The translations under genes and the position numbers were made by a program. A model generated the notes under the pieces. That model was not told where the DNA came from, did no database searches, and saw only the letters and a program-made list of their open reading frames with translations. 64,000 nt of DNA, taken from an uncultured virus (IMG/VR IMGVR_UViG_3300033075_001711). Lineage: Duplodnaviria > Heunggongvirae > Uroviricota > Caudoviricetes. Each line of letters begins with the position of its first letter. Positions within the stretch are counted from its first letter, which is position 1. The stretch lies in the IMG/VR virus record IMGVR_UViG_3300033075_001711; one strand, written 5' to 3'. Below, piece after piece: positions 2,531-48,823 of the stretch.

Positions 2531-3435
2531 TTAAAGACAGCGTTTTTTAATTTTTCTTTTTTGATGTTGGGGCCTGGGTCTTGTTTTCGCAGCGTTCAAA
2601 TCACGATCCATTTCTATTAAACAATCCTGATTTAAACACCTATATATTCTATCTGATAAAGACAAGTCTTTCTTGACTTGTCCGCATCTACTACACAATT
2701 TAGATGAAGGATAAAATCTATCTATGTATTTTACAGACCCTCCATACCAATATGTCTTATATTCTAACATTGTCCTGAACATACCCCAGCCAGCGTCCAT
2801 TATGGACTTCGCTAAATTATGATTACGGACCATGTTTTCTATACTCAAATCCTCAATAACAAATATTGTTGGCTTGGTTTTCACCAACAAACTAGTTATC
2901 TTATTTAATATATCTTTTCTTATATTTTTTATTTTATAATGGATCCTAGAAACCACTTTTTTAGCTTTTTCTCTATTATTAGATCCTTTTTGTTTTCTAG
3001 ATAGGTTACGCTGCGCGTGTTTTAATTTATGTTCATATTTATTATATGTTTTAGGATTATCAAACGATTTTCCATCAGAACAAACTAATAATGTTTTTAA
3101 ACCCCTATCGATACCTAAAATATTAGGAGGATTGTCAAGAGCCTTTGGCTCAGGAATGTCTTCTTCAACACATACTGAAACAAAATATTTATAGTTTTCT
3201 TTAGAGACAGTTACACTAAGAAATTTAATATTTTTATTTTCTGTAGAAGGAATATATCCAGACTCTTTTATTTTTAATAAACCTATTTTAGGGATTTTTA
3301 TTTTATTATTTTCAATTTTTAAATTAACATTGTCAAATCGAAAAGATTGTTTTGATCCATGTTTGCTTTTAAATTTTGGATATCCTGGAACCCCACCCGT
3401 TTTTATTCTTCTTAAAAAATGTTGAATATATTTTT
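2531..3435 (-). pseudogene. tnpB: TnpB remnant truncated at both ends
   Basis: Frame is open without a start from ~3435 (FLRRIKTGGVPGYPKFKSK...ILGIDRGLK...VIEDL...CSRC...DRDLNAAK); core is near-identical to 38565..39842 but the N-terminal ~95 aa and the right end are absent. Confidence 0.85.
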
Positions 3436-22670: not shown

Positions 22671-23961
22671 ACATTCACTTAAATTCTCTAATCCCTCTAA
22701 ATTAGAGACATTTCATTCTTTCCTCAAAGAATACAGGCGTTGCGCCTCTATTCTCATAGATTATCTCTGGACTCATGACTACTCCTGGATTTATAAAGAT
22801 CAAGAAAAAATATTTTCCATAAAGAAAAATTTACTTGAACTTCCTTCCATGCTTACTTCCGATGTTATTCAAAAATCTGGTTTAGAAACATTTCTCTCTG
22901 GAAGAGTTCTTAAATGTTTATTGACTCAAATTGCAGGTATGATCTCTGCTGAAGTAGAACTCCAAAGAAAAAGAATCTTTGTATTAGAAAAAAAGAAATT
23001 TGAAAATACCCCTCGTAAAAAATTAAAACATCTTATAAAAAGTATAAAAACAAATATACCTCAGAAACCCTCTACAGAGAACATTAACCCGGAACTAAAT
23101 TCTATTTGTGCTGACTTTAAATTTACTGAAGGAGAGTTTAATGGGTTCCTTAAACTTAAATGTCTAATTAATACCGAGCGTGGTTTTCACATTAACTTAC
23201 CAATTAAATTTACTAAACATTCAAATAAACTTCACTCTAAAGGTGGAGTTATGAAACCTTCTTTTCTAATCAATAAAAATTCTGTAGATATACGGTGGGA
23301 AATTCCAGATCCTGTTAAAGTTTTAGATGGTAAAATAGTTGGCGCTGATCAAGGTTTAAAATCTGTTCTTACATTATCTGATAGTCAAGTAACTCCTAAT
23401 ACGGACATACATGGACATTCCCTGGACTCTATTTTAGATAAATTATCCAGAAAACAAAAAGGATCAGTTAAATTCAAGAAAGCACAAGATCATAGAACTA
23501 ATTTTATTAATTGGAGCATAAACCAGTTAAATTTTAATGGTATAAAACAGATAAATTTAGAAAGAATTTGGAATATAGGGTTTAGAAATAAAACAAGTAA
23601 AAAATTAAGTCATTGGACGAATACACTAATCAGAGACAAGGTTGAGTCAAGATGTGAAGAACTTGGGGTCCAAGTACAGCATCAAGATTCTACATACAGA
23701 AGTCAGAGGTGTAGTGGTTGTGGACAAGTACGTAAGTCAAATCGGAAAGGGAAACTATATGAATGTATGAATTGCGGATTTATTTTAGATGCAGATCTAA
23801 ATGCTGCGAAGAATCATGAAACATTGTTGCCTGAAATCCCGAGGAATTTACAGAAACTCAGAATGAACATAGGAGCGGGATTCTATTGGTTAGAGTCAGG
23901 GTTTTATGATTCTGGGGGCAGGAGCCTTCAGTCTCTGCTGTCGAAAAAGGAAGTTTCATAA
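22654..23961 (+). CDS. tnpB: IS607 TnpB RNA-guided nuclease
   Basis: VGADQG, INLERI, SQRCSGCG...CMNCG Zn finger, DADLNAAKN; RuvC triad intact. Confidence 0.9.
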   Translation: MIRSSKHSLKFSNPSKLETFHSFLKEYRRCASILIDYLWTHDYSWIYKDQEKIFSIKKNLLELPSMLTSDVIQKSGLETFLSGRVLKCLLTQIAGMISAEVELQRKRIFVLEKKKFENTPRKKLKHLIKSIKTNIPQKPSTENINPELNSICADFKFTEGEFNGFLKLKCLINTERGFHINLPIKFTKHSNKLHSKGGVMKPSFLINKNSVDIRWEIPDPVKVLDGKIVGADQGLKSVLTLSDSQVTPNTDIHGHSLDSILDKLSRKQKGSVKFKKAQDHRTNFINWSINQLNFNGIKQINLERIWNIGFRNKTSKKLSHWTNTLIRDKVESRCEELGVQVQHQDSTYRSQRCSGCGQVRKSNRKGKLYECMNCGFILDADLNAAKNHETLLPEIPRNLQKLRMNIGAGFYWLESGFYDSGGRSLQSLLSKKEVS

Positions 23962-30646: not shown

Positions 30647-33282
30647 TAGATTTCCCCTTTTATTTCTTTAACAGGATTTGATTTAAGATATTTATTACTT
30701 TTTATAACTAACCAAGAGGCTAACCCAGCTAATCCTAGATTCCATAAATTTATAGGCTCTTCTGTTATATTTTCGGCTATTTTAAAATCATAAGTATATT
30801 GAAAATTTATATACGCATATTTTTGAGTTCGGAGTAAGTGTTTAACTTCATCTTCAGAAATAACTTTATCTATTTTTAAATCAGATGTTTCATTAGATAC
30901 TCTAGCTATTGGATCATAAATAGTCAGAAGGTTTATTTCAGATTCAATAGGTAAAAATCTAAAAATATCTCCATTTTTACATAACACAAAATCTCTGGGT
31001 TTAATATTGGAGGTATTTTTAGAAGCAATATAAGCTATTAAATTTTTATCATAATTTTCCCACACACAATTTAATACATCACATTCATAAATAAAAGTAT
31101 TCATCTCTAAAAAAGATCCAAACTCATAAATTCTATCTAATTGAGATATGGAATCAATATGTTCCTTTAATCCAGGCTCTTTTGAATTTTTAGTCTGAAA
31201 CATTTCAGCATAAAATTTATATGTATTATCTTGTTTGGAATAAATTAGATAGTTATATTTTCTAGGATCACGAAATAAATAATATTTAATAGGCGGGTTT
31301 TCTGCTGTTGATTTTTCTGTTTGTTCTAAAATCTTTTTTATGTTGTCAACAGAAAATTTATTGTGTGTTCTATACACATCTAAATCTTTAGATATTTCTA
31401 TAGTTTTTGCAGCTTTATTTTTAGGGTGTAAAGTAATATTTGAATTAAATGAAACAAATTCTAATTTTTTAGACTCATTAAAACTATCAAAATCAATAAA
31501 TTTTAATTTTTCTTTGTTCTCATCAATAAAATCAAAAATCTCTATGTCTGACATTGGAGATAAATTTTTATCTTTATAGAGATAAAAAGATTTGAGATTT
31601 TTTGTATGTTGTGATAAATGATCCGTTGTTGTGGCAATAATTTTACAATCATAATTATCTGCATCAAGTACTTCTAGTAAATATTTTTCTTTGTCTATAT
31701 CTAGAACACAAAAATCCTCATTTTTAAGTTTTAATTCGATTTTTGGTAAAACATTTAAAGGAATAGTTTCAACTATTTCAGGAATTTCAAGTTGTAGTTT
31801 CTCAGGAAATTTTTCTATATATTGTTTAATCGGCTCAACAAACTCCCCATCTTTTATTTCATAGCTTTTTTCTTTATTACATATTTTAAAATTCCCTTCT
31901 TTAGTTTTTAAAATTGAAAGGTCTTTTACTGTAGACAACAACAAATTAATATCAATACTTTTAATTCCTTTTGTTTTATTCATTCCATCTAAAATTTTAT
32001 TAGATGAATCTTCTACAGAAATACATAATTGACTTAATTCATACTCTAAATTTAATTGATGAAACATGTCTGAATATAAACATTTCCCATAAATATCGTT
32101 TCCAATTACTTTTGTAATAAAATAAGTTCCATAAGAATTTTTAACAATTTTACCAAAATATTTGTGTTCATTAATATATTTATCTAGTTTGGAATTTAAT
32201 TGATATAACTTTTTATTTAATTTAAAAAATTTTTCGCCCCATAAATTTGAAACAATTTCCAAATTTTTATAATGTTTGAGAAGTAAATCTACGTCAATAA
32301 ATTGAGGTTTTCTTGAGTCTGTAGATGTAAGAATATCAAATATATCTGACTCACTTTTAATTTGGAGGGCATTATCTTTAAAATACAAAGTATATTCTTC
32401 ATCTTTGACACTAATATCTCCTCCTATATTAGCTAATACACATTTTCCTAAAATAGTATTATCAGATATTTTAGTAATTTCATATATAGAACAATCATTT
32501 CCTACAATATCTCCAACTTTAAATTTGGAAACAAAATCTTTTTCTATCATTTTACTTAAAAACCCTTTTTTAACAGGTTTAATATAGCCACAGTTCTCAT
32601 GAAAAATGGTTCCGTTTTCCACTACTATTTTTGAATTTATAGACTTCATTACATCTAAATTTAGATATTTTAATTGCCCTGTTTTGTCTAAATTATCAAT
32701 GTATTTAAACATTCCTGTAATACTAACTAATTCGGCTTTTAAATTTTTAGAAATTTCAAAATTTTCATTTTGATTTCCAGGTAATTCACTTGCAATTACA
32801 TTAACATAAATTTTATTGTTTTCTATTTTAGATACTGTAAAACAGGTAAATTCAGTTGTATAAATATTACCAACTATATAGTGACTAGGGTTAAACTCTA
32901 AATATTTTTTTATTTCTGTTTCTAGTAAACTGTTAGGTTTTGGGACATAACTGATCATGTCAAAATTTATAGCTGTTGGATTTTTTTCACTAGATAAATT
33001 TAAAAAAATATTTCTATGTAAATTAAAAATAGCAGGCAAATCAACATATTTTAAATTTTTAGTTACTATAAATTCTAGAACATCTTCAATACCACACTTT
33101 GTTCCAGCCCCAACCATATTTTGAATTGGAACTTTATGTTTTGAAGCATCATCCACAGGTGCCCCAGAAGCTAAATACTTTAGAAAACAATCCCCGGAAT
33201 CTTCAATATCTTCTAAAGTGTATACACAAAGATCATTTTTGTAAATTTTTCTCATTTTCTTTTCCTCTACTATAAGTAGCAA
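30646..33282 (-). CDS. Large SH3/KOW-like repeat protein with C-terminal hydrophobic tail (likely start at MRKIYKND)
   Basis: About 870 aa; modules IVGNIY, FKVGDIV, YFGKIV, IKPRDFV; tail LWNLGLAGLASWLVIKSNK. Confidence 0.7.
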   Translation of the reverse strand: MLLIVEEKKMRKIYKNDLCVYTLEDIEDSGDCFLKYLASGAPVDDASKHKVPIQNMVGAGTKCGIEDVLEFIVTKNLKYVDLPAIFNLHRNIFLNLSSEKNPTAINFDMISYVPKPNSLLETEIKKYLEFNPSHYIVGNIYTTEFTCFTVSKIENNKIYVNVIASELPGNQNENFEISKNLKAELVSITGMFKYIDNLDKTGQLKYLNLDVMKSINSKIVVENGTIFHENCGYIKPVKKGFLSKMIEKDFVSKFKVGDIVGNDCSIYEITKISDNTILGKCVLANIGGDISVKDEEYTLYFKDNALQIKSESDIFDILTSTDSRKPQFIDVDLLLKHYKNLEIVSNLWGEKFFKLNKKLYQLNSKLDKYINEHKYFGKIVKNSYGTYFITKVIGNDIYGKCLYSDMFHQLNLEYELSQLCISVEDSSNKILDGMNKTKGIKSIDINLLLSTVKDLSILKTKEGNFKICNKEKSYEIKDGEFVEPIKQYIEKFPEKLQLEIPEIVETIPLNVLPKIELKLKNEDFCVLDIDKEKYLLEVLDADNYDCKIIATTTDHLSQHTKNLKSFYLYKDKNLSPMSDIEIFDFIDENKEKLKFIDFDSFNESKKLEFVSFNSNITLHPKNKAAKTIEISKDLDVYRTHNKFSVDNIKKILEQTEKSTAENPPIKYYLFRDPRKYNYLIYSKQDNTYKFYAEMFQTKNSKEPGLKEHIDSISQLDRIYEFGSFLEMNTFIYECDVLNCVWENYDKNLIAYIASKNTSNIKPRDFVLCKNGDIFRFLPIESEINLLTIYDPIARVSNETSDLKIDKVISEDEVKHLLRTQKYAYINFQYTYDFKIAENITEEPINLWNLGLAGLASWLVIKSNKYLKSNPVKEIKGEI

Positions 33283-33463
33283 AAACCAATCTACCTATTT
33301 GTCCACAAGAAATTCCTAAAAGCATGTATAAATTTAATGTGTTACCTTCTGTAAAATACCCTACAATAGATATAAATGAAAATAGTTCTGGTAAGGCAGG
33401 GGCTTTATCAGTAATAAAGCCCATAAAAAATCCCACACAGAACATAAAGATTTTAAAAAACAT
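33233..33463 (-). CDS. Small membrane protein
   Basis: 76 aa, mostly hydrophobic. Confidence 0.5.
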   Translation of the reverse strand: MFFKIFMFCVGFFMGFITDKAPALPELFSFISIVGYFTEGNTLNLYMLLGISCGQIGRLVFATYSRGKENEKNLQK

Positions 33464-33469
33464 ATTTTT

Positions 33470-34669
33470 TCAATCTCCAATCACAAATTGATTAGCTATA
33501 TCTACAGCTTCTTCAGTATTTAATAACCCGTGCCCGTACATGATATTTGGATATTTATATCCTTTTAATTTAGAAGTAGTAGAATATAAACAATATTTTA
33601 TGATGCTAGGTCTAGTGATTCCTAGCCCCATAATTAAAGCTACGGTTGCTGATACGTGTGGCGCAGCCATAGACGTTCCGGCCTCGTAAAGATATAAATT
33701 TTTGGATAAATCAAGGTAATCTACAGTGTTTTCGACAATCCCGTCACGTCGATTGTCTGAATTTAGATCTGCATCTAAATCACCTCCTGGAGCTACAATA
33801 TCTAATTGTCTTCCCATTGAACTATACCAAGTATGTCTATTTCTTACATTAGTGGCTCCAACAGAAATTACTTCAGAATATTTTGCTGGGTATGTTAAAT
33901 TTCCAAATGGATTATTTCCAGCCGCACAAACTATAATAATTCCACGTTTACTAGCATATTGAATAGCTTTATATAGTTCATAGGAATCTTCTTCACCACC
34001 TAATGACATGTTAATAACATTAACTTTATATTTTCCAGATCTCCAATTACTAGCAAAATAAATTCCAGCCGCTACTGAAGAGTAAGACCCGTTTCCTGAC
34101 CTATCTAAAACTTTCACAGGTAATATTTTTATACCCGGAGCTATTCCCACTACTCCTTTATTATTGTGAGGTTGAGCTACAATTGTAGAAGTGACATGCG
34201 TACCATGACCATGATCGTCATTGGCGTGCCTATCCCAATTTATAAAATCGTAACCTTGAAAAAAAGAATTTTTATTTAAATCTTCAGCTTTGTAATAGTT
34301 TTTAAAATTTTCATAGGCTACTCCAGTATCTAAAACAGCTACAACAATGTCTTTCTGACCTGGAACTTTTTCTAATAAACTGTCAGGGTCTGCATGAATA
34401 TTTTTTAGGTTCCATTGATATTTATAATAAGGATCATTATAACCTAAAATAGTAATTGAATGATCCGGCTCTTGACTAGAGATTAGTGTGGAATAAAGTA
34501 ATTTGTTTGAAACATAAATATTTTTATGAATCTGTTTTAATTCCGCACCAGATCTCTCTAAAAAACAAAGTTGTGAATAAGTAGGTTCTTGTTTAAATCT
34601 AACAATATATGTATCAGCAAAAACAATATTTATATTTAACAGAAATAAAACAAATAAATTTTTTAACAT
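33470..34669 (-). CDS. Secreted subtilisin-like S8 serine protease
   Basis: Signal peptide ending VFA-D, prodomain, VAVLDTG, HGHGTHV, AAGN, GTSMAAPHV. Confidence 0.95.
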   Translation of the reverse strand: MLKNLFVLFLLNINIVFADTYIVRFKQEPTYSQLCFLERSGAELKQIHKNIYVSNKLLYSTLISSQEPDHSITILGYNDPYYKYQWNLKNIHADPDSLLEKVPGQKDIVVAVLDTGVAYENFKNYYKAEDLNKNSFFQGYDFINWDRHANDDHGHGTHVTSTIVAQPHNNKGVVGIAPGIKILPVKVLDRSGNGSYSSVAAGIYFASNWRSGKYKVNVINMSLGGEEDSYELYKAIQYASKRGIIIVCAAGNNPFGNLTYPAKYSEVISVGATNVRNRHTWYSSMGRQLDIVAPGGDLDADLNSDNRRDGIVENTVDYLDLSKNLYLYEAGTSMAAPHVSATVALIMGLGITRPSIIKYCLYSTTSKLKGYKYPNIMYGHGLLNTEEAVDIANQFVIGD

Positions 34670-34787
34670 TTAATTTATCTCCTTAAACTAGAGCACAAAA
34701 TTTCTTCATTTGTGATTCATTCCAGAAAATTAGAGTTTTATTTGTTACCCCATCTGGGTATTAATATTTGATTTATATAAAATATAT

Positions 34788-34910
34788 GTAGCATCACTTT
34801 TTAAAGTTTGCTACACTAGGGATGGTTCAGCCCGAAGTTAAGCTTGTGGAGAGTTACAGAATTCTGAGAAACAAGAAAGGAACATCCGGAATGAATAAGT
34901 TTCCTAGAAC
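34788..34910 (+). ncRNA. Orphan IS607 TnpB omegaRNA-like scaffold
   Basis: 20-nt identity (AAGCTTGTGGAGAGTTACAG) and colinear similarity to the right end of the 38.5-39.9 kb element, ending TAGAAC; no adjacent tnpB. Confidence 0.7.
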
Positions 34911-34964
34911 AAAAACACCATTGCACTATTTACATGTGTGTTTAAATTTTTACACAATATTTTT

Positions 34965-34999
34965 AATGCCTTCATAATATGAAGGCATTTTGTTTTTTT
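34965..34999 (+). terminator. Intrinsic terminator-like hairpin
   Basis: AATGCCTTCAT-AAT-ATGAAGGCATT followed by TTGTTTTTTT. Confidence 0.6.
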
Positions 35000-35035
35000 C
35001 ATATCACAATTCTCCTGTGTTAGGTTGACTATTAT

Positions 35036-35064
35036 GTTATACCTCTTGATTCATGGTTTGTCAA
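35036..35064 (-). promoter_or_regulatory. Sigma70-type promoter, back-to-back with a plus-strand TTGACA at 35070
   Basis: TTGACA-17 nt-TATAAC. Confidence 0.75.
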
Positions 35065-35148
35065 GCCTCTTGACAAAAATGTTTTTTGATATTAGGTATA
35101 CTGTAATTAGTTTTATATTGGTAAATTTTAGATGAAGGAGAATATTTT

Positions 35149-35493
35149 ATGCGTTTATTGCGAAAACACAGAAAATCTTTAGTATTGAATCTTAAAAAAA
35201 TGTTGTATCATTTTAAAAAGAATGAGCTTGAAAATTTTGCAGATACTGAAGATTGGATTAAAGTTTCAGAATATTGTTGGAATGCTGTAGAGGAAATTAA
35301 AAATTTAGGATTTAGATTTAAAGAGGTATCTAATGAAGAACCTAAAACAACATTAGAAAAACTTTACAGGTTACTGTTTAAATTTATAGCTAATTTTCAT
35401 CCTACAATGGAATTCCATGAATTTTATGTTCCTGAAACAATTCCTGAATTTTATAATATAATAGATCTTTTAGATAGTGAGAAAGATTTATGA
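35149..35493 (+). CDS. Hypothetical protein
   Basis: 114 aa ORF with AAGGAG SD. Confidence 0.7.
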   Translation: MRLLRKHRKSLVLNLKKMLYHFKKNELENFADTEDWIKVSEYCWNAVEEIKNLGFRFKEVSNEEPKTTLEKLYRLLFKFIANFHPTMEFHEFYVPETIPEFYNIIDLLDSEKDL

Positions 35494-36074
35494 ACATTAT
35501 AATTTCAACAAAATCTGATTTTCAGAAAATAACGTCAAATTATGCAGCCGCAGAATTAACTATTAAAGGATATAAAGATTCTCCAAAAGAAATTTATAAA
35601 ATAGAAGGAACACCATATTGGTTATCCATAGTTACTTCTTTTTGGGAAACGCATACAAAACCACATTTTAGAAAAACATATCAAAATAAATCTATTTTTA
35701 GTATTTCTGAATCAGATGTTAAAAATTTAATTCAAAAAGCTATAAAAGATACAAAACCAGTCAAACAAAATAATGGAGGCATTTCAACATATAGATTTGT
35801 TTATGACACAGGTAAAATTATTGGTAAAGATGCTTCTGAAAATCATGCCAGTACTCAAACTCTGACTGTTGTATGTGCTATATTAGATAAAATTCTCGTG
35901 GATGGTAAAAAAGTAAAAGATCCAAATAAAACAGTATTACATTTCATTTCTTGTTATCCTGGAAAACCGGCCGCCCAAGCTTCTTTTGATAGAACATCAT
36001 ATTTAAATTTATTAAAAATTAAAATCGCAATAAGCGTTTTAAAACAAAGAATTAATAATTATTTCTTTAATTAA
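35490..36074 (+). CDS. Possible EndoU/toxin-type ribonuclease-like protein
   Basis: H-x3-H...KSIF...DTGKIIG...LTVV...ISCYPG pattern resembles polymorphic-toxin RNase domains. Confidence 0.4.
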   Translation: MNIIISTKSDFQKITSNYAAAELTIKGYKDSPKEIYKIEGTPYWLSIVTSFWETHTKPHFRKTYQNKSIFSISESDVKNLIQKAIKDTKPVKQNNGGISTYRFVYDTGKIIGKDASENHASTQTLTVVCAILDKILVDGKKVKDPNKTVLHFISCYPGKPAAQASFDRTSYLNLLKIKIAISVLKQRINNYFFN

Positions 36075-36109
36075 GATAATAGATATAACTCATTTCAGAA
36101 ATATACAAT

Positions 36110-36757
36110 ATGTCTAACATAAAAACAGCAACAAACAACATTATAAAAATAGGAAAACTATTAGAAAAATCTAATAGTTTAATTAAAAAAGCCCAACAAC
36201 CTGTTACTTTAACAGATGTTGCTCCAGATGCTGATGATACTATGTTTAAAGATTTATCTACAGGTGTTAAATCTTTAGATGGTATTATTACTAGTATTCA
36301 AACCAACATAACAAAATTTAAACAGTCTCTAAAACAATTAGAAAATGTTCAAAAATTACATAGTTTTGTTACTAGTTTTAAAACTAGTTTAAAAACATAT
36401 TTGGCTAATTTTAATAAAGCTTTTGAGATTCTATCTTCTAAAGGTGAAGAAGAAATTAAAAAATTAAAAGGTCCAAATTCTCAATCATTTTTAAGAAAAC
36501 GATTGAATCAAGTTTTAGAAGTTTTAAAAATTGAGAGGGGATTTATAATAACTCTTTATGATAACCTTTCTAGATTAGAGGGAGATTTAGATCTTGCCCG
36601 TGGAGTTAAAAAATATAATCCTTTATCAGATATAGAGAAACAAAGATCAGACGCTAAAAAAGAGAGAATGTTGCCATATCAAAAAACAGATATTTTACCT
36701 CAAAATCAAAAAACAGATATTTTACCTCAAAATATGGATACAGTTACTTTGAGATAA
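36110..36757 (+). CDS. Helical hypothetical protein, possibly virion-associated
   Basis: 215 aa; KTA/KKA near the N-terminus; duplicated QKTDILPQN. Confidence 0.65.
   Translation: MSNIKTATNNIIKIGKLLEKSNSLIKKAQQPVTLTDVAPDADDTMFKDLSTGVKSLDGIITSIQTNITKFKQSLKQLENVQKLHSFVTSFKTSLKTYLANFNKAFEILSSKGEEEIKKLKGPNSQSFLRKRLNQVLEVLKIERGFIITLYDNLSRLEGDLDLARGVKKYNPLSDIEKQRSDAKKERMLPYQKTDILPQNQKTDILPQNMDTVTLR
36680..36733 (+). repeat. Exact 27-bp tandem duplication
   Basis: CAAAAAACAGATATTTTACCTCAAAAT x2. Confidence 0.9.
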
Positions 36758-36796
36758 TTTTTGTAATTCAAACACTTTTCCTAGAGTCATTTCTTT

Positions 36797-36829
36797 AAAA
36801 GGCAAATTTTTAACTAAATTTGCCTTTTT
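36797..36829. terminator. Bidirectional terminator between convergent genes
   Basis: AAAAGGCAAATTT...AAATTTGCCTTTT inverted repeat. Confidence 0.7.
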
Positions 36830-36895
36830 CTTATCTACATGAAGGATTCGGCAAAAATCGGTGTCTTTTTCCATATGCTTTCCTCCAACAAATAT

Positions 36896-36924
36896 GTTAT
36901 AGTATCAAACTACCTAGTTGTCAA
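36896..36924 (-). promoter_or_regulatory. Sigma70-type promoter ahead of an unlisted ~50 aa ORF (MEKDTDFCR...)
   Basis: TTGACA-17 nt-TATAAC, then GGAGG SD and ATG. Confidence 0.7.
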
Positions 36925-37594
36925 TAGACAGTTTGATTTTTATTTTTTCTATTAAAGGTTTAAAAACAAAATTGATATTTGATAAAATATATTGTTTTCT
37001 TTCTAGTTGAGTTGGTTTGTATTCAGAAATAGAAATTTTTGTTAATTTTATTCTAGTTTTAGAACTAGCTGCTTTTTCATAATGAGCGTATTTAAGAAGT
37101 TGAAGTAAACTAAATGTACCTATTTGTTTTTTAGCAACATTAATAGGCTCACCATTTTCATCAAATTGTGTGTCTTTTTTAATTTCTAAAGTTGAAACAA
37201 TAACTTCAGAATTAGGATGCCCTATATCTTTAATTTTAGGTTTCTCTTTGCTATTAGAAGTTAATTTTTCATATGTTGCAGGCAATAGGTATTCCGCAAA
37301 ACCTTGAAGATATTCTTGTGTTTTACTGGAATAATTTCCGGCCTCTACATAATATTGATCAGATCTTGAGTAATGTCTAATCCGAATCCACCTATTTGCT
37401 AACACTTTAGCTAGAATTTCTTTTCTTGCTTTACCCTCATGCCCTCTACCTTCATGGTATTTCTCGTATAGAGAATCAATTTCGGCATTAGAAAAACCAA
37501 ATTTTTCAGGTTCAGATAAAACTTCATTAATATGAAAAGTTTTTACTTCAATAATGTCTCCACGAGGACTGATAAAATAACCTTCGCCAGCCAT
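36914..37594 (-). CDS. Conserved-looking phage hypothetical protein
   Basis: 226 aa; GYFISPRG...H...PEKFG...EGKAR...WIRIR. Confidence 0.65.
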   Translation of the reverse strand: MAGEGYFISPRGDIIEVKTFHINEVLSEPEKFGFSNAEIDSLYEKYHEGRGHEGKARKEILAKVLANRWIRIRHYSRSDQYYVEAGNYSSKTQEYLQGFAEYLLPATYEKLTSNSKEKPKIKDIGHPNSEVIVSTLEIKKDTQFDENGEPINVAKKQIGTFSLLQLLKYAHYEKAASSKTRIKLTKISISEYKPTQLERKQYILSNINFVFKPLIEKIKIKLSIDN

Positions 37595-37595
37595 A

Positions 37596-38129
37596 TTAAA
37601 TATTCCTATTTTTATTATAAATGTCCAGTATATTTACAATTTTTGATCTCTCAGAAGATAATTTAAATCCTTTAGCTTTATATTCGGAATAAGCTTCCGC
37701 AACATCTTTATCAAAATTAGCATTAAAAGATGTTCCTCCTGTAATTGCTTTAGTGTCTCCTGTTTTGTAAAGAAACCATTCTCCTTTTTCCCCCCAAATA
37801 AATGCTTCTTGCTCATATTTCTTAGCTAACTGCTCTGCATGTTCAAAAGAACAATTTGGGATATAATAGGATGGTTCATCATAAACGGCTTCTGAATCTG
37901 TAGATTTCCAAACTCCTCTAACAGGAGTAAAGCCATAATTAAGATCTCGAATATCTTTACCTAAAAAAGCCGCTCGGCGTAAATTATCCTGGCTTTTTTC
38001 AACTCCTTTAAATGCTCCAACTAAAGCAAAAGATCCATTTTGAAAATGATTAAAAATTCTAGATAATCCTGAAGCATTTTTAGCCCTCTCTTCATAAGAC
38101 CCATAATGTCTAAATTTTTCAGACAACAT
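37596..38129 (-). CDS. Conserved-looking phage hypothetical protein (DUF3293-like)
   Basis: SGLSRIFNH...GAF...N...VRGVW...EPSYYIP...KYEQEAFIW. Confidence 0.55.
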   Translation of the reverse strand: MLSEKFRHYGSYEERAKNASGLSRIFNHFQNGSFALVGAFKGVEKSQDNLRRAAFLGKDIRDLNYGFTPVRGVWKSTDSEAVYDEPSYYIPNCSFEHAEQLAKKYEQEAFIWGEKGEWFLYKTGDTKAITGGTSFNANFDKDVAEAYSEYKAKGFKLSSERSKIVNILDIYNKNRNI

Positions 38130-38174
38130 AATATTTTTTCCTTTCTTTTATGTTTTTTATAAATAGTATATAAA

Positions 38175-38189
38175 GGGGCACTCTGCCCC
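38175..38189 (-). terminator. Terminator-like hairpin
   Basis: GGGGCA-GAG-TGCCCC then TTTAT, just after a stop codon. Confidence 0.55.
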
Positions 38190-38542
38190 CAACTTCTATT
38201 TTTTAAAATTTAACTCATAAAGTTGAATTAAAAATCTTCCCACATCTTTAGTAAAAGATTCATGCAAATCTACAGAAAAAGTAATTGTTTGTTTAGCTGA
38301 ACCTACTTCTGTGTATTGTGTTACATTAATTTTATTTTCATTTATTAAATGTAAAGTAAAATTACTGGTTGTGTTTTGTTTTAGAGAAACTTCAACACTC
38401 TCGGGACCTTGGGTTCTTCCCGACCTAACTTTATAAAATAAATCCATTAGGGGTTGAAAAGTTTCTAGTAATTTAACAGCTAAACTACTATATTTCTCGG
38501 TTTGACCAAGACTAGAAATTAAACCTAGTAACATCATAATTT

Positions 38543-39895
38543 CGTTCTAAAAGATTTACTCAAATTATAATTCCATTCCTGAAATTTCTAACTCATTACT
38601 TTTTTCTTGCTTCTCAGAGTCCTGTAACTCTCCACAAGCTTTAAACTCAGAGCCATCAGGCTCCTGTTTTCGGACGGAACTCGCCCTAGTTTTGCCCAAA
38701 CTACACGCCTGAGCCAAATTCTTCGCAGCGTTCAAATCACGATCCATTTCTAAACTGCATATTTCACAACGATATGTCCTCTCGGACAAATCTAATTTAT
38801 CTTTCTTATTATTACAATTACTACACAATTTAGATGAAGGATAAAATCTATCTACATATCTTACAGACCCTCCATACCAATATGTCTTATATTCTAACAT
38901 TGTCCTGAACATGCCCCAGCCCGCGTCCATTATGGACTTGGCAAGATTATGGTTACGGACCATGTTCTCTATACCTAAATCTTCTAACACGAATATTGTT
39001 GGTTTGGTTTTCACCAACAAACTAGTTATCTTATTTAACACATCTTTTCTTATATTTCTTATTTTATAATGGATCCTAGAGACAACCTTTTTAGCTTTTT
39101 CTCTATTATTAGACCCTTTTTGTTTTCTAGAAAGAAAACGCTGTGCGTGTTTTAATCTTTTCTCATATTTATTATATGTTTTAGGATTATCAAACGATTT
39201 TCCATCAGAACAAACTAATAATGTTTTTAAACCTCTATCGATGCCTAAAATTTCTGGAGGATCGTCCAGAGCCTTTGGCTCAGGAATATTGAGTTCAGTT
39301 TGAACAGACACAAAATATTTATAGTTCTCTTTTGATATAGTTAAATTAAATATTTTATGCGTTTTATGTTCAGAAAAAGGGAGATAATTCTTTTCTTTTA
39401 ATCTAACCCACCCTATTTTAGGAATCTGAATGTGAGATTCTGTTATATTTATAGGATTAACATTAGAGATTCTAAAAGATTGTTTAGATCCGTGTTTACT
39501 CTTAAATTTAGGAAACCCAGATTTTTCTTTGTTTTTGACCCGTCTAAAGAAATTTTTAAAGGCTGAGTCCAAGTCGGAGAGAGCTTCTTGAGGAATACAT
39601 TTAGAGACTTCGTAAATCCAAGGAAACTCAGATTTCTTTTTTGAACATAAAATTTTATGAAGATCATAATTAGATAAATATTTCAGTTTAGAACTATCTA
39701 ATTTATGATTTTCATAAGATTGTTTGAGGAGGTTGAGGCCCCAATTGTAGGTGAACCTTGAGGTACCGAAGGCTTTCTCGAAGAGAGAAGCCTGTTTGTT
39801 GTTGGGCCTGAGTTCGGATTTATAAGATTTGTTAATTTTCACTTATTATAATATACAAATTATTTCTCTTTTTTAACATAATAAATTTATACTTT
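38543..39895 (-). mobile_element. TnpB-only non-autonomous IS607-like element (left end approximate)
   Basis: tnpB followed by an IS607-style right end (AAGCTTGTGGAG...TTTGAGTAAATCTTTTAGAACG); no tnpA. Confidence 0.75.
38565..39842 (-). CDS. tnpB: TnpB RNA-guided nuclease
   Basis: HTH_OrfB N-terminus (FGTSRFTYNWGL), GIDRG, VLEDL, PSSKLCSNC, DRDLNAAKN. Confidence 0.95.
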   Translation of the reverse strand: MKINKSYKSELRPNNKQASLFEKAFGTSRFTYNWGLNLLKQSYENHKLDSSKLKYLSNYDLHKILCSKKKSEFPWIYEVSKCIPQEALSDLDSAFKNFFRRVKNKEKSGFPKFKSKHGSKQSFRISNVNPINITESHIQIPKIGWVRLKEKNYLPFSEHKTHKIFNLTISKENYKYFVSVQTELNIPEPKALDDPPEILGIDRGLKTLLVCSDGKSFDNPKTYNKYEKRLKHAQRFLSRKQKGSNNREKAKKVVSRIHYKIRNIRKDVLNKITSLLVKTKPTIFVLEDLGIENMVRNHNLAKSIMDAGWGMFRTMLEYKTYWYGGSVRYVDRFYPSSKLCSNCNNKKDKLDLSERTYRCEICSLEMDRDLNAAKNLAQACSLGKTRASSVRKQEPDGSEFKACGELQDSEKQEKSNELEISGMEL

Positions 39896-40499
39896 ATTTT
39901 ATGTCCAAATGTGCCAATCGGCCAATTTACAATGTTTTAAAACAAACCGCATTATTTTAAAAATTTGTTCTTTTTTAGGTAAAAGTTCAGGGAAATATTC
40001 AAGTTCATGATTAAATCTTTCTTCGATAGAAAAATCTGGATAAAGCCCTTGAATTGGAACGCCCCAACAAGTAGAATAATAAACAGTTAACAATTGTTTT
40101 TCAGGATTATGTAAATCTTCTTGAATGTAGCCACCTAAAACACGACTAATTTCAGGGTCTGTTTTAACTTCAGGAAATTTTTCAAGAATTTTACTGTAGT
40201 CATAAATAGCTATATATCCGTCTGCGCCCATTAACTTTCTCCTTTAAAATCATAAATAATAGCTTTTCCTTTTAGTTTTCCTGTATAGATCCTTTTTTCA
40301 ATGCAAACAGGTAAACCTGTTTTTCTAACCATGTATCTGGCCCACTCTAAAGCTTTTTTAATAGTTTTAGCTGTTTCAAATCCTTTAAACATAACCCCGT
40401 GTTTTAGTTTTTTAATTCGGGTATATTTTGCTAATTCAGAAAAAATAGTGTAAGAGACATGTCGTTTTGCTTTCATGTAGGTTGACCCTCCACGTTTTA

Positions 40500-40528
40500 G
40501 ATATAACACTGAGCCATCTAATTGTCAA
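40500..40528 (-). promoter_or_regulatory. Sigma70-type promoter
   Basis: CCTCTTGACA-17 nt-TATATC with extended TG. Confidence 0.7.
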
Positions 40529-42042
40529 GAGGCAACTTAAATTTTTTGTTCGGACTCTATTATAGCACGCAATTCATTTTTAAAATCAATCCAAAAAAGA
40601 TCCCACATATGATTCCATGACTTATCATATTCTTCAACAACATCATACCAGGGTTCATCTAATTTAATGTTGTCACATAAATATTCCAAAGAAATATCTT
40701 GATTTTCAAAACTAATAACTAAATCTAATTGATCAAGATGTTCATACTCTAAATTTAAATTTTCATATTTTTCTTGTAATGAGATTTTTAATGCTTCAGC
40801 AGTTTTATTTATATCTACTTCTTTTTTCACATTAAATTTAGAACTTAAATAATCTAAATCAGTGGATATTAAAAATTTAGATGTAGAAACATCTCCACGA
40901 CCTTTTCGATTCCAATTAAAACACCAGGATCCAAAACTAGAATAAATAGACACAATGCCTTGATCTTCACTATCATCCAGTAAACAAATAAACCAGTCAT
41001 GTTTTTTATGTAAAGTTATTTTTGTTATCTCACAAATTTTAAACATATCTACCTCTAATAATGATTCCAACATCATATATATTTGTTATTATTATGTTTT
41101 CTAAAGGAAACTCCACATCAACCCAATTATGATTTTTATCCAATTGAATTGATGTGGAGGGGTCTTGATTTGCTACTTTTAGTAATAATCTTTGTTGTTT
41201 CGAAATTTGAATATTTGAAACAATAGCAAATTTTTTTTCACCAAGATATTTTTCTTGATAGATTATTAAACTAAAAGATTGCATAATCTTTTCCTTAAAG
41301 ATAAATTTTTTTCAAATCTGCTAAAAGCGTGCCAAAATCAGGGTTAGTTCTTAAATTACTAAATCCACCTAAATTTTCTATAAAATGTTTCAGAGGAATA
41401 TTTTTTAATTTTGCTTCCATAGCTTCAAGTATGATAGCATCTGAATTAAGATTTAGAGGGGAGGGATTACTATTTTCATTTGTTTCGGAAACAGCCGCAT
41501 TTGATTCAGAATTTTTTTCTAGTTCTGTTTTTTGTGTGGAAAGTAGTGAAGATATTTCAGAAAAATACTCTTTAAATATTACTGTTTTTTCACTATAAAA
41601 TTTGAGAGCTTCTAAAATATCATTTCTAAATTCATTTGAAATATTTGCTGTCTTTAAAATATTTAAAGTCGTAGGATAAAAACAAGGTCGTGAAAAATTA
41701 AACTTCTCAGGCCAAGTATCCATAATCTGTATTATAGTTTCTAAATGTTTTCTATTAAATTCAGATTTAATTATGTTTGTTGGAATTTCAAGCTCTGTAT
41801 ACTCTTTACTTAATGTGATTAAATCTTGTAGTAATTTCTTGTCTACTTTAGACAAAACTGAATAATGTCTATTGTGTTTAGTATCTTTTAAACTTTGAAG
41901 TTGATTGTTATTTTTTCGGAGAATTTCTAAAACATTATTAGATCTAGTAGATCGCATTAGTTTTCCTCTAATTAAAAATTTTAAAACAATAATATAGTTA
42001 TAACTGAATATTTTTAGATATGTAAAATAAGGAAATTTTAAA

Positions 42043-44982: not shown

Positions 44983-46218
44983 TTACCTCTTTCGAATTAC
45001 ACAGCCTAGTGTAACAGGTTCGTTATCTACTATATCACCTACAGAACTGAACACAACATCCGATCTTAAATCTTTAACTGCTTCAAAAACTATTTGTTTA
45101 AATTCTCCTGAAGTAGGTTCAAATTTATGATCATCATGTCTTTTATCATTTTCTTCAAAACCATAATATTTATTAAAATTTTTATTTGGGACTGTAATTA
45201 CAATAGAACCAAAATCCATTTTACAAAGATTTTTAAGTAATTTATATGCTTCTTCTAACTCATTATGTTCTAATACTTCAGTTAAAATAATATCTACTTT
45301 TCCTGAAATATTTTGTAATGAATCTAATAAAATAACATTCTCTTCTTTCTTTGACTCTAATTTTTCTTGCAATTTATACATGTCCCTATCATATGCAAAA
45401 TAAAAATTTGGACATTTACGAGCCAAATAAAAATAATTCCCTTCCCCACACCCAAAATCTAAAATGTTATTAACAAAATTTAAATTAGATTCAACATATT
45501 TTTGTCTAGCTAATAAAGTATTTCCAGATACAAGAGAAATTTTATATCTACCTGATTTCTCTAATACGGATTTATTGCTTTCAAACTCTTTTCCTGATTT
45601 AAAGAAATGAGTTTTAAACATATATCTAACAAAATATGGGGGGTCAATAATCTCCAAACATCGCATATATTTTTTAATTGCTTCAGTATCAATATACTCT
45701 GCATTATATTGAGTTCCTACTGCATAAATAAGAAAAAGTAGTGTAAAATTTAGAAGCTCATAAATACCTTGTGTTGTTGAAATTGTTACCTCATAGTTGT
45801 GAAAAACAATTTCTTTGTAATTTATATCAAATTGATTTTCAAAATGCTTCTTAAAAATCTCCAAAGTTTTTCTTTTAATATCTAGAATAGGAAATTTAAT
45901 ACTGTAATTACAGCCCTCAATATCCTCATCTATTTTTTGTTTAAACGCAGAAGCCAATAACTCAGTAATAGACGAAATCGCCGCCATAGGCGAGTTATAT
46001 CTTGTTTTATTCATGTACTCAAAAGTTTCTTCTGAGTTTTCTCTAAAAGAAATCTCATTAGCAGCATCTTTGAAATATAGTAAATATTTTGAATTGTCTT
46101 TATTATACAAACCAAAAACATTACCTTTTCTTACTGGTTTAACAACCATTCCTGAGCTAGGGTTTTTTCTAATAATAAAAGATAAATTTGTATTGTTAGT
46201 TTCTAGAATTGTTAACAT
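44983..46218 (-). CDS. hen1: Hen1-like RNA 2'-O-methyltransferase
   Basis: N-terminal NLSFIIRKNP ligase-activating region, LDFGCGEG SAM motif, TEVLEH, TVPN, RHDDHKFE; directly after pnkp. Confidence 0.85.
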   Translation of the reverse strand: MLTILETNNTNLSFIIRKNPSSGMVVKPVRKGNVFGLYNKDNSKYLLYFKDAANEISFRENSEETFEYMNKTRYNSPMAAISSITELLASAFKQKIDEDIEGCNYSIKFPILDIKRKTLEIFKKHFENQFDINYKEIVFHNYEVTISTTQGIYELLNFTLLFLIYAVGTQYNAEYIDTEAIKKYMRCLEIIDPPYFVRYMFKTHFFKSGKEFESNKSVLEKSGRYKISLVSGNTLLARQKYVESNLNFVNNILDFGCGEGNYFYLARKCPNFYFAYDRDMYKLQEKLESKKEENVILLDSLQNISGKVDIILTEVLEHNELEEAYKLLKNLCKMDFGSIVITVPNKNFNKYYGFEENDKRHDDHKFEPTSGEFKQIVFEAVKDLRSDVVFSSVGDIVDNEPVTLGCVIRKR

Positions 46219-46234: not shown

Positions 46235-48772
46235 TTAGAGTCGTGGGTCAAGTGATTTTTCTTTATTTTCTTCTTGAACAAAATAGGATAACAATCTAAC
46301 ATATTCCAAATTATCTTTAGTTAGTTTAGAATATGGAATCTCTAGCATTTTATTTCCTAATTCGGCCTCTTTAATTGAAATATTAAGTTTAGATTTAATT
46401 CCTTTTTCTTTGATTAATTTAGAATACTTATCTTTATCTAGGTAATCATATCCATACACTAAAGTTAGATAGTTACTGTTTCTAACTTTCATATATGGAG
46501 CTACACCAGGCCGGTTAAATCTGGGTTTTAAAACAATTCCTTCCATTTTATGCTCTGTAGTTACAGAATGATAAAATTCTCTAGCTTTCAATAAATCTTG
46601 TTCGGAGTTTAGATTTACAACCAAACAAGTATCATTAGAAATTAACCTAAACACTTGCTCAGTGGGCTCATTGTGATACAATCGTTCTTGCCCATTTAAT
46701 ACAAGTTTGAGAATATTAAAGGGTTTAAATTCCACTTCTCCCTCGGACCCAAAAATTTGGAGTTGTTCTTTATAGACATCTAAATATTTTTGTTGAGAAT
46801 CTAAATCTGTTTTTTTAACATTTCTGAGATTCATATATGTTTCATATTTAGAGCCATATTTAGAAAGTAATCCTTTTTTAGGCATGTTGTTAACATCACT
46901 CAAAAACCCTGAATTTTGCATTTCAACAAAACTAGAATCATATTGTGAATTAAACTCAAACTCTTGTAAAGTTTTTAGTTCAGACTCTACTCCGAACTCA
47001 ACTGCTTTAAAAGTTTGATCAATTAATCCTTTACCTAACACACTCCAAGGACATAATTCCCCATCTAGAACAATTAAATCATAAAACATTCCTTGAAAAT
47101 TTTCTGCTAATTTTTCATAGATTTTATTTAGTTCTGGTACATTTTTAATAACAAAACCATTTCTAGACACAGCATATGAATTTGCGATGTCCTTGAAAAG
47201 GTAAATGTTACATCTACTGCCCATATATTTTTTCTGAATAACAATTTCAGAAATACCTTTTGATTTAAAATACTCAAATCCTTTGTCTAATGACTCAAGA
47301 ATATTTGTATCTAAATCTTTGTCGGCTGGGCACATAGTTCCTGAAATAAAATTGATTTTGTTTTTGATGTAGGAATCAATTTTCTTTTGTTCAGTAGGAT
47401 CTAAAGTAGACAAATCTACTTCATTCTTTTTAAACAAAGAAATGAAAGATTTGTCTACTTTAGGTAAAATGCTTTGAACAGAACTCCAGAAAAGTTTTCC
47501 TTCTGGAGTAACAGATAAACAAGTTAACTCATTACCATAAACACATCCAGTATCAATGCCAAACTTGTTTTTATGAACTAGTTTGCGTTCAAATGTAATG
47601 TGTCCAAAAACATGGTAAGGATAACTTTGTTCACTATCTTGTCTTAAAAAATCAAAAATTTTGTCATAATCAAGATTTTCCTCTCTTGCAACTACAAAAT
47701 TACGTTGAGATTTAATCGCTTTTCCATTAACTTTTCCAAGATATTTATTGAGACATGGAGCATGTGTAACAATAAATTGTTTTGTTCTAACAAAAGGATA
47801 TGAAATATCCACTAATTGTTTTAACAAATTTACTTTATCTTGAAATTCAGGAATGGAAGTGAAATAGGACTTCTCTAGTTCATCAGAAACTTTTGTAAAT
47901 TTAGGCACTGTAAGCCTTTGGAATACATAATTTTCATGATTTCCTAGAACAAAAATGCAATGTTCTTGATTGTTTAAAACAAACTCAACCACTTGTACAG
48001 AGTCTGTCCCTTTATCAATAATGTCTCCTAGAAAAATAACTTTTGTGTTAGCTGGAGCAGAAACAATTTTTCCTCTCTCAACCTTAAAATTATTTTTTTC
48101 TAGAAGATTAATCATGTCCTGATAACAACCATGAACATCCCCAAAAATTTTGTAGTCCAAAGAACTATCTAAAAAATTTCTTAAATAGTTCTTTACATTA
48201 GAAATAGAAACTTGAATATTTTCAAAATCTGGAGTTTTAATTTTATGAATTTTGTTGAAAGATTTCCTATCCAAATTTTTATAAACTTCAGTTCTTAATC
48301 TTTCTACATGTTTTACTACAACACGTTTTGGAATTGAGGGGTCCAGGTGGGCAAAAAATTCAGAGGTATTCTCATAATCAAAAATCAACATCTCAAGATT
48401 ATATTGATTTTCTAAAGCAATACTAGCAATTTTATCTCTGAATTCTTTGTTAAGACCTGTGGTATCTACAATAACAAAATCAGCATTAATAGGAAAACTT
48501 GTAACCTGATTAAGTTTAGAATAGAGAGTGTCATAAGCAAGTTTAGAGGCTTGCAACATTAGAGGGTCGCCTTTTTCAGAAGTATACCCTAGAAGGTCTG
48601 CTCTAATTTGATCCGAAGAGATATGTTGAATATTTGCCTTATGATTAGGGGAAGTGAAAAGATTCTGTAGTTGTGGGATTAGGAAATTTGTTGTAAAATG
48701 GGTTTTACCTGAACAAGAAGGCCCAACTAACAACAACACTGTTTGTGGTTTAGTCTCTAGCTCTAGTGACAT
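46235..48772 (-). CDS. pnkp: Bacterial-type Pnkp: kinase + metallophosphoesterase + RNA ligase
   Basis: GPSCSGKT, VDTT; GDVHG, GDIIDKG, GNHE, FGH, IDTGCVYG; KKYMGSR, LDGEL, EGIVLKP, MKVR. ATG at 48772 has a GGAG SD. Confidence 0.92.
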   Translation of the reverse strand: MSLELETKPQTVLLLVGPSCSGKTHFTTNFLIPQLQNLFTSPNHKANIQHISSDQIRADLLGYTSEKGDPLMLQASKLAYDTLYSKLNQVTSFPINADFVIVDTTGLNKEFRDKIASIALENQYNLEMLIFDYENTSEFFAHLDPSIPKRVVVKHVERLRTEVYKNLDRKSFNKIHKIKTPDFENIQVSISNVKNYLRNFLDSSLDYKIFGDVHGCYQDMINLLEKNNFKVERGKIVSAPANTKVIFLGDIIDKGTDSVQVVEFVLNNQEHCIFVLGNHENYVFQRLTVPKFTKVSDELEKSYFTSIPEFQDKVNLLKQLVDISYPFVRTKQFIVTHAPCLNKYLGKVNGKAIKSQRNFVVAREENLDYDKIFDFLRQDSEQSYPYHVFGHITFERKLVHKNKFGIDTGCVYGNELTCLSVTPEGKLFWSSVQSILPKVDKSFISLFKKNEVDLSTLDPTEQKKIDSYIKNKINFISGTMCPADKDLDTNILESLDKGFEYFKSKGISEIVIQKKYMGSRCNIYLFKDIANSYAVSRNGFVIKNVPELNKIYEKLAENFQGMFYDLIVLDGELCPWSVLGKGLIDQTFKAVEFGVESELKTLQEFEFNSQYDSSFVEMQNSGFLSDVNNMPKKGLLSKYGSKYETYMNLRNVKKTDLDSQQKYLDVYKEQLQIFGSEGEVEFKPFNILKLVLNGQERLYHNEPTEQVFRLISNDTCLVVNLNSEQDLLKAREFYHSVTTEHKMEGIVLKPRFNRPGVAPYMKVRNSNYLTLVYGYDYLDKDKYSKLIKEKGIKSKLNISIKEAELGNKMLEIPYSKLTKDNLEYVRLLSYFVQEENKEKSLDPRL

Positions 48773-48794
48773 AGGTGTTTCTCCAATCTCTCCT

Positions 48795-48823
48795 CTAATA
48801 ACATCAAACTTTGGTTTTGTCAA
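48795..48823 (-). promoter_or_regulatory. Sigma70-type promoter of pnkp-hen1
   Basis: TTGACA-17 nt-TATTAG with extended TG. Confidence 0.6.

Follow-up and report, generated by a model that had tools for sequence, protein, structure and literature searches.

Guide-RNA scaffolds of the TnpB family have been described away from any nuclease gene in several settings. Stand-alone omegaRNAs, which have no effector or transposase of their own, lie beside effector loci and are reported to work in trans with compatible effectors, and their role is given as unknown (Altae-Tran et al. 2021 as summarised in PMC10691335). PATEs are protein-less derivatives of IS200/IS605 elements that, in the words of their description, "often encode omegaRNAs" requiring TnpB in trans (Meers et al. 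2023, PMC10055086). For IS607-type TnpB, the RAGATH-18 RNA is described as the core of the guide RNA (reRNA), in which a 5' hairpin loop pairs with the scaffold 3' end and for which a 20-nt guide is optimal; 10,258 of 16,029 RAGATH-18 RNAs (64%) were found adjoining an IS607 TnpB and the remaining 36% elsewhere (Ren et al., PMC11061315). The RAGATH-18 kink-turn has been crystallised (PMC8191799); the name RAGATH does not occur in the Weinberg 2017 paper. Viruses, in turn, carry CRISPR mini-arrays or single repeat units that are used against related viruses or as decoys (PMC11656645). A search of literature titles and abstracts for phage-borne stand-alone guides turned up no such report. In this study, we analyzed 64,000 nucleotides of the uncultured virus IMG/VR IMGVR_UViG_3300033075_001711 (referred to as the window), a stretch of a large uncultured phage that carries a gene-less copy of a TnpB guide-RNA scaffold, 125 bases long, at 34786-34910 (+). 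This solo module is almost certainly, on the comparative evidence given below, a gene-less TnpB guide-RNA module (omegaRNA/reRNA). We furthermore favour, with a probability of roughly 0.55, the reading that it is used in trans as a guide module by the intact TnpB encoded at 38565-39842 (-).

The sequence-only reading had described the solo module as colinear with the right end of the tnpB element, and this was confirmed. In a MAFFT alignment, 34780-35000 (+) is colinear with 38520-38720 (-), and the solo at 34786-34910 matches the tnpB right end at 38712-38544 (-), with ACTAGGG, the GTTC loop, TCTGAGAA-x-CAAGAAA and TAGAAC common to both. The 20-mer AAGCTTGTGGAGAGTTACAG occurs at exactly two sites in the window, 34840-34859 (+) and 38622-38641 (-), with up to three mismatches permitted, and none of 100 shuffled controls contained two matches. 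The tnpB-linked copy lies where an omegaRNA is expected to originate, at the right end of the transposon and the 3' end of tnpB, whereas the solo itself is detached. A tblastn search with TnpB found no tnpB remnant upstream of the solo, as had been claimed; the sole match was the scaffold-encoded tail at 34821-34883 (E 0.054). The region around the solo (34700-35100) had no match in the phage collection. Its neighbours are a subtilase gene (33470-34669 (-)) and, from 35149 (+), open reading frames (ORFs) without an assigned family, with no effector or transposase adjoining.

The module begins with a 5' stem-loop with GTAGCA/TGCTAC arms (34786..34815 (+)), whose assignment as the left boundary is based on the fold and the alignments. 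The hairpin, already noticed in the sequence, was recovered by folding (minimum free energy -35.7 kcal/mol, z = -2.93, equalled by 2 of 200 shuffles). Within 34786-34815, TGTAG and TTTG are common to the tnpB-linked copy and flank a 15-nt insert. The scaffold follows at 34816..34910 (+), scoring 27.7 bits against RAGATH-18 and 111.1 bits against R1, a covariance model described below that includes this sequence in its training set. The putative guide, AAAAACACCATTGCACTATT, occupies 34911..34930 (+), the first non-conserved bases after the scaffold; its length was taken as 20 nt, following the optimum described by Ren et al. (PMC11061315). At the left boundary we also observed a 16-nt direct repeat (88%; AATATATGTA.CA..CA) of 34781-34796 with 34604-34619 inside the subtilase gene, which is probably due to chance.

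A second pair of copies was found in another IMG/VR contig (G001; 45 kb, estimated 12% complete), whose tnpB element is 85% identical to that of the window at the DNA level. This contig carries a second scaffold ~24 kb from tnpB and without tnpB upstream; the scaffold is preceded by a 63-codon ORF together with a palindrome, and a long ORF follows it. Beyond both elements, only the subtilase (43% amino acid identity) is detectably shared between the window and G001. The two solos are 81% identical with 7 gapped columns, compared to 66-75% identity and 27-58 gapped columns between solo and tnpB-linked copies; the tnpB-linked pair shares 79.5%. By these sequence comparisons there are two scaffold lineages, a gene-linked type A and a gene-less type B, the solos being mutually closest. 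The G001 solo has a hairpin in the place matching 34786-34815, in another register. Relative to the tnpB-linked copy of the window, the window solo lacks two stretches, one of 24 nt and one of 27 nt, corresponding to an internal hairpin and to a segment of the 3' stem-loop, respectively. The sequence-only reading had remarked on the missing internal hairpin. It is indeed missing from the solo, but it is also missing from the tnpB-linked copy of G001; the 24-nt hairpin is thus dispensable in that family.

We modelled the secondary structure of the four copies (two from the window, two from G001) as five helices and a loop-to-3'-end pseudoknot. In the solo, hairpin P1 lies at 34819-34833 (+) with its loop GGUUC at 34824-34828, the kink-turn core at 34843-34877 (+) with a CUUGU/ACAAG stem and a GAGUU-ACAG-AAUUC hairpin, and 34878-34883 (+) together with 34899-34905 form a 3' stem; the P1 loop would form the pseudoknot with GAAC at 34907-34910 (+). 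Sequence differences had been said to maintain pairing, which the alignment bears out: standard pairs make up 96% of its cells, and in 10 of the 25 pairs both partners have changed. Not one of 500 column shuffles came up to this, and sliding the partners by 1-3 columns left at most two pairs with both-sided changes. Such changes over the four copies affect the outer and inner core stems (pairs 82-121 and 91-109), the outer stem showing C-G to U-A in the tnpB-linked copy of G001. Among the copies, the inner hairpin GAGUU-ACAG-AAUUC is swapped for the longer hairpin GGGCC-AAUA-GGCCC with pairing kept, and in the 3' stem G-C pairs are replaced by A-U pairs between the two lineages. The potential GTTC/GAAC pseudoknot may likewise be retained. 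All four positions can pair in all four sequences; the one both-sided change, C-G to U-A in the G001 solo (GUUC/GAAC to GUUU/AAAC), is a single event among four sequences.

This pattern also bears on the notion that the locus is a small protein gene. An ATG-started frame of 51 amino acids (34822-34977 (+)) does run open across the element. Its conservation, however, tracks base pairing and not codons, the G001 counterpart has ATA in place of the start and a TAG two codons on, and tblastn sees only the frame of the tnpB tail (E 0.054). We therefore give a protein-coding role almost no credence.

At relaxed thresholds, the only matches to RAGATH-18 (RF03064) in the 64 kb are the cores of the tnpB-linked copy (38604-38638 (-), 31.5 bits) and of the solo (34843-34877 (+), 27.7 bits). 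The E-value of the solo core is 0.0042 in a 501-nt search and 0.53 over the whole window. Both cores score below the RAGATH-18 gathering score of 44.9, and a window scan at the gathering threshold gave no match. The low scores result from the reduction of the long distal stem to a 5-bp hairpin (37 model positions aligned to one base). The kink-turn core itself is present, comprising the outer stem, the GGA bulge, the inner stem and the GAxGAA strand (cmscan, model positions 1-71, both stems kept). An Rfam scan by E-value of eight loci, including the two copies of G001, returned no RAGATH-18 match.

In order to find further copies, we carried out the covariance-model search that had been suggested for this locus. 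R1 was built from the four copies; in the window, it detected only the solo and the tnpB-linked site. G001 and a second viral record, G002 (147 kb), were searched whole. In G002, R1 detected two copies from a related scaffold family, both gene-less (44.6 and 43.4 bits), and neither of the two TnpB genes of this record (one compared, 35% identity) carries this scaffold at its 3' end. The G002 copies are located at L069 3346-3464 (-) and 5715-5833 (-), 2.4 kb apart, and each ends exactly at a TTG-started ORF; one of these ORFs is GroEL-like, with an N-terminus that fits the TTG start. Among 78 viral tnpB loci, R1 gave 24 matches at E <=0.01, with 21 situated at tnpB 3' ends. The remaining three (L085, L109 and L136) are on the opposite strand, and their 1.2-kb flanks contain no tnpB belonging to them. 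In the related viral contigs L109 (906-1035 (-)) and L136 (915-1044 (-)), the gene-less scaffold is placed divergently upstream of tnpB; their 5' sides and scaffolds are alike and their 3' flanks unrelated, so that tnpB is bracketed by two outward-facing guide modules. In L085, a tnpB-linked and a gene-less scaffold (2291-2412 (+) and 3005-3128 (-)) face each other across ~600 nt, and the sequence that immediately follows is similar in the two. A full tnpB element at the site of the solo in relatives, which would have made the module a simple deletion scar, was not seen.

The exact 20-mer AAGCTTGTGGAGAGTTACAG was absent from viral contigs, and a degenerate scaffold pattern matched only G001 among viral contigs and nothing among metagenome and genome contigs. 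With the core pattern loosened, 42 viral loci matched, most of them by chance, and two of the 42 have a P0001-like tnpB; a covariance search of 26 of these loci (apparent duplicates and the G001 and G002 loci being left out) yielded nothing better than E 0.5.

The scaffold ends where a guide should begin. All four copies terminate in AAC and then diverge, and the two solos cease to resemble each other at 34910, the scaffold/guide junction, which agrees with the earlier assignment of the 3' flank as guide. We compared contigs of four public runs with window positions 32000-42000 and found metagenome contigs diverging at 34910/34911 in X2 (n=2), X5 (n=2) and X20 (n=1), the X20 contig having a G001-type hairpin with a flank that differs from that of G001. 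Since the solos diverge at 34910 and these contigs at 34910/34911, this type of scaffold is joined to no fewer than four distinct 3' flanks, although the metagenome copies could be tnpB-linked. Near-identical contigs of X2 and X5 also span the solo-plus-flank arrangement of the window itself. No empty-site joint skipping the solo or the tnpB element was listed among the run contigs over 32000-42000. No RNA data set was listed among the runs; X20 may be one, although its contigs are uninformative on transcription. One X2 contig (2,078 nt) matches 36938-38543 and continues with 469 nt unlike the window, the break falling exactly at the right boundary of the tnpB element; another X2 contig skips 66 nt within tnpB (38753-38820).

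A conserved scaffold followed by a variable flank would also be expected of an RNA decoy, in which the flank is irrelevant and the scaffold soaks up TnpB, be it the phage's own, the host's or that of a rival element. Virus-encoded single repeat units acting as dominant-negative RNAs have been described (PMC11656645). A variable flank is, however, equally guide-like, a decoy would impair the intact cognate TnpB that the phage has retained, and nothing specific indicates inhibition. We consider a decoy function very improbable.

Downstream of the putative guide, the 11-bp hairpin with a T-run that had been pointed out is present. It resembles an intrinsic terminator (34965..34999 (+); 11 pairs at 34965-34989, followed by TTGTTTTTTT) and was also returned by the repeat scan as inverted repeat I6, with 12-nt arms that are 100% complementary. 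A second terminator-like hairpin (35057..35087 (+), hairpin at 35057-35077) precedes the operon starting at 35149. Overall, three terminator-like sites were counted in 34400-35300, compared to 0.1 expected. The ORF map contains no + strand ORF of at least 90 aa between 23961 and the solo; consequently, these terminators would have little to stop but a transcript of the solo.

The nuclease that would be served in trans is encoded by the tnpB element at 38544-39859, 3.6 kb from the solo. Its tnpB gene (38565..39842 (-), 425 aa) carries the Pfam domains HTH_OrfB_IS605, OrfB_IS605 and Cas12f1-like_TNB. The RuvC residues D202, E287 and D369 and the four zinc-finger cysteines, invariant in the family, are all present (26 homologues). 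Among solved structures, TnpB is closest to an AI-designed RNA-guided nuclease (9yyg, E 2.7e-76) and, among natural proteins, to ISDra2 TnpB (E 1.2e-64); the match to chain 8iaz, which we take to be ISFba1, is weaker (E 1.9e-51). The cognate scaffold at the right end of the element (38544..38689 (-); R1 90.6 bits, RAGATH-18 31.5 bits; boundary from the G001 comparison) overlaps the last ~40 codons of tnpB and is followed by the cis guide, which runs from 38543 downwards (GAAATTATGATG...). In the 26 homologues, the C-G-E of the tail, for which UGUGGAGA codes, is almost invariant, as is K-Q-E, evidently because the guide-RNA core is encoded there; the tail would thus be constrained by the RNA and not by the protein. 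This TnpB is the only scaffold-bearing cognate nuclease in the window. Two further full-length tnpB-like genes, at 6185-7456 (+) and 22654-23961 (+), have no R1- or RAGATH-18-like scaffold after the gene; the latter is preceded by a serine recombinase gene (22095-22670 (+)), forming an IS607-like pair.

According to the reading we favour, transcription of the solo would proceed to the right, starting near 34786 and ending at the two terminators (34965-34999 and 35057-35087), and the transcript would be trimmed at its 3' end. The trimmed RNA could then be bound in trans by the intact TnpB of 38565-39842, and the complex would cut DNA that carries the transposon-adjacent motif (TAM) of the family next to AAAAACACCATTGCACTATT. 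The single active nuclease of the phage would thereby gain a second specificity beside its cis guide. The sequence-only reading had likewise proposed a trans-acting guide RNA for this TnpB. Of that proposal, the gene-less scaffold, its intact fold, the guide boundary and the cognate nuclease stand, the role in trans being what we infer from them. The alternatives it named were a miniature inverted-repeat transposable element (MITE) guarding its own site and a domesticated weapon. The 5' flank of the solo is unlike the left end of the tnpB element, and because no left end or TAM could be defined, the solo is not demonstrable as a MITE.

The origin of the solo may be traceable within the window. 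We found a truncated tnpB paralogue at 2572..3427 (-) that covers aa 95-374 with 76% amino acid identity to the intact TnpB. Its frame is open for ~300 codons, and both the N-terminus and a scaffold are lacking; it has acquired a new C-terminal tail, TRPRPQHQKRKIKKRCL. The homology of the paralogue ends at the base equivalent to 38707 (...CAGGC), and that of the solo begins at the equivalent of 38706 (GTGTAG compared to ATGTAG at 34786); the outermost aligned bases are weak on each side, so that the breakpoints could be up to 16 nt apart at worst. The paralogue is 72-76% identical to the intact TnpB and its relative P0002, compared to 85-86% between the latter two. As the breakpoints abut and both paralogue and solo are outgroups to the 85-86% cluster, the two likely come from one type B element. 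By this comparison they are probably the halves of an older sister element, the paralogue being the former nuclease gene of the solo.

Two ideas were considered and dropped. A single recent inversion of 2572-34785, which would rejoin paralogue and solo, finds no support in gene orientation or GC skew, both of which are continuous across the two points. The left flank of the tnpB element and the right flank of the solo were also considered as halves of one insertion site; homologues of the neighbouring gene, however, end at the same conserved C-terminus, and the tnpB element therefore lies after the native stop.

The same data raise the question of whether the solo is an inert remnant, left when the coding part of a second tnpB element (2572-3427) became separated by breakage from the right end of that element (34786-34910), the latter being idle and not yet decayed. 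The abutting breakpoints fit such an event, as does the common source element implied by the outgroup position of paralogue and solo relative to the cluster of intact tnpB, P0002 and P0003; the missing promoter prediction and target point in the same direction. On the other hand, G001 too has a gene-less member of this lineage, with its fold intact and in an unrelated context, and gene-less copies recur in viral contigs (two in G002 and three among the 78 tnpB loci). The solo is furthermore followed by dedicated + strand terminators, and if one inversion of 2572-34785 were to join the halves, a strand switch would be required, which neither gene orientation nor GC skew displays. In view of these points, we regard an inert remnant as rather unlikely.

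We next turn to what the guide might recognize. Searching the guide against related phages and candidate hosts, as had been recommended, did not produce a convincing target. Allowing 3-4 mismatches, none of the four guides had a second site in the window or G001, and the guide 18-mer was absent from viral contigs. The guide 19-mer matched seven loci in 596 Gb of genomes, in unrelated phyla, compared to an estimated chance expectation of ~4 or more. A weak lead, at the level of sequence identity, comes from two Bacteroidales metagenome-assembled genomes (MAGs; L062 and L063), in which one homologous gene matches the guide at 20 of 20 positions with CATTTGGACA just before the match. The match lies near position 290-320, in a signal-peptide region (...FSITSFGQKNTIALLKYSGGGDWY). 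The same 10 bases, CATTTGGACA, occur in the window at 39911-39902, beyond the conserved left end of the tnpB element at a distance of ~40 nt.

This coincidence would suit a domesticated guide that, by analogy with virus-borne CRISPR mini-arrays, is aimed at foreign DNA, such as a competitor phage or a bacterial gene, and in which the flank was selected and is not accidental. The full-length match is preceded by the sequence found near the left end of the tnpB element, and we estimate the odds of this double coincidence at ~1 in 1000, a rough figure obtained after the fact. Several observations speak against such a guide. The seven 19-mer matches in 596 Gb are about what chance predicts, and a perfect guide site was present in only one of 301 sampled genomes of the Bacteroidales (22 sites with at most two mismatches, compared to 11 in a reversed control). 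In the window, CATTTGGACA belongs to the native conserved C-terminus (DW.VWT) of a neighbouring phage gene, and no TAM is readable from the two left ends. The phage also has strong Shine-Dalgarno sites, which are untypical of Bacteroidota hosts. In five MAGs searched for TnpB, the query used returned no P0001-like TnpB. Taken together, a selected guide against foreign DNA seems improbable. We attach equally little weight to the wider conjecture that large phages might keep guide modules after tnpB decay and let paralogous TnpBs use them in trans, which would amount to a one-spacer, repeat-less forerunner of a CRISPR array directed against non-self DNA, with the bacterial gene carrying the 20/20 protospacer after CATTTGGACA as a candidate target.

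Several points weigh against use of the solo in trans. Searches of the window, G001 and viral contigs yielded no target, and matches in genomes are at chance level. No sigma-70-like promoter was predicted on the + strand within the 280 nt before 34786 (six sites regionally, compared to 6.1 expected); phage promoters may be of another type. The structure is based on only four sequences and was derived from the same four. The covariation could predate detachment from the tnpB gene; having possibly accumulated while the scaffold was attached to tnpB, it is no proof of selection on the solo state. The solo is ~74% identical to the tnpB-linked copy with two segments missing, and compatibility with TnpB is therefore an assumption. 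The abutting breakpoints fit accidental breakage as well as retention, so that the solo may stem simply from the breakage of a second element. Finally, the TAM is unreadable from two left ends, with neither AGGAG nor GAGGG found at the left end.

The surroundings are those of an AT-rich (GC 0.23-0.32), phage-like genome with small ORFs in long co-oriented blocks, and a protein database record places the TnpB of the window on a 195,833-nt contig. No Y1 transposase was detected among the 27 of 91 window ORFs of at least 90 aa that were scanned with Pfam. Between the solo and tnpB lies an S-adenosylmethionine-lyase-like ORF (37596-38129 (-)), and the operon just after the solo includes an ORF (35490-36074 (+)) with a weak Ntox50 match (E 5.7e-4) below the cut-off. 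Further along, we identified a Hen1 and Pnkp RNA-repair gene pair (44983-46218 (-) and 46235-48823 (-)) and a LAGLIDADG homing endonuclease with a helix-turn-helix domain (48991-49947 (-)).

If the RNA of the solo is made and loaded, one phage nuclease would have two guides, one in cis and one in trans, which would be the simplest way for a selfish transposon nuclease to start becoming a multi-guide system. The locus also offers a natural test case for the tolerance of TnpB toward scaffold divergence (~74% identity, two stem segments missing). In addition, it provides a phage example, with the probable parent gene still visible, of a phenomenon to which the summary in PMC10691335 assigns an unknown role. 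Modules of this kind have been published before as stand-alone omegaRNAs, PATEs and RAGATH-18 RNAs away from tnpB; the link to a truncated paralogue is new here.

A close counterpart is the ISFba1 reRNA as described by Ren et al. 2024 (PMC11061315). It has the same kink-turn core, with a CUUGU..ACAAG stem around GGAG-hairpin-GAGAA, as well as a 3' stem-loop and a variable guide directly after; its 5' hairpin loop pairs with the scaffold 3' end, as that of the window copies may. In the window copies, however, the distal stem of the core is shortened to a 5-bp hairpin. The window scaffold moreover overlaps the tnpB frame, with an ACGE tail that is nearly invariant in 26 homologues, whereas the ISFba1 reRNA is described as starting 13 nt after the gene (PMC11061315). 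The TnpB of the window is also closer to ISDra2 TnpB than to chain 8iaz, and an AGGAG or GAGGG TAM is not readable.

Among virus-borne guide units, the CRISPR mini-arrays resemble the solo in that a virus carries a minimal guide-encoding unit relying on a nuclease encoded elsewhere. They differ in that no direct repeats bracket 34911-34930, that the nuclease would be the TnpB of the phage and not a host Cas protein, and that no protospacer match exists in viral contigs; an Rfam match to CRISPR-DR21 at the terminator has an E-value of 1.2. PATEs, as described, keep both ends with hairpins and a TAM, whereas a left end of the solo is undetectable in the window or G001 (the left end of tnpB being TTTGTATAT...). 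A further parallel is formed by the stand-alone omegaRNAs of the OMEGA systems, as far as their summarised description goes: these also consist of a scaffold and a flank without an effector, in a genome that holds an effector locus with a compatible scaffold, a compatibility that we infer here. Compared to them, the solo resides in a large uncultured phage and belongs to a sister lineage instead of being a near-identical copy of the resident element, and its probable former nuclease gene is still recognizable 32 kb away.

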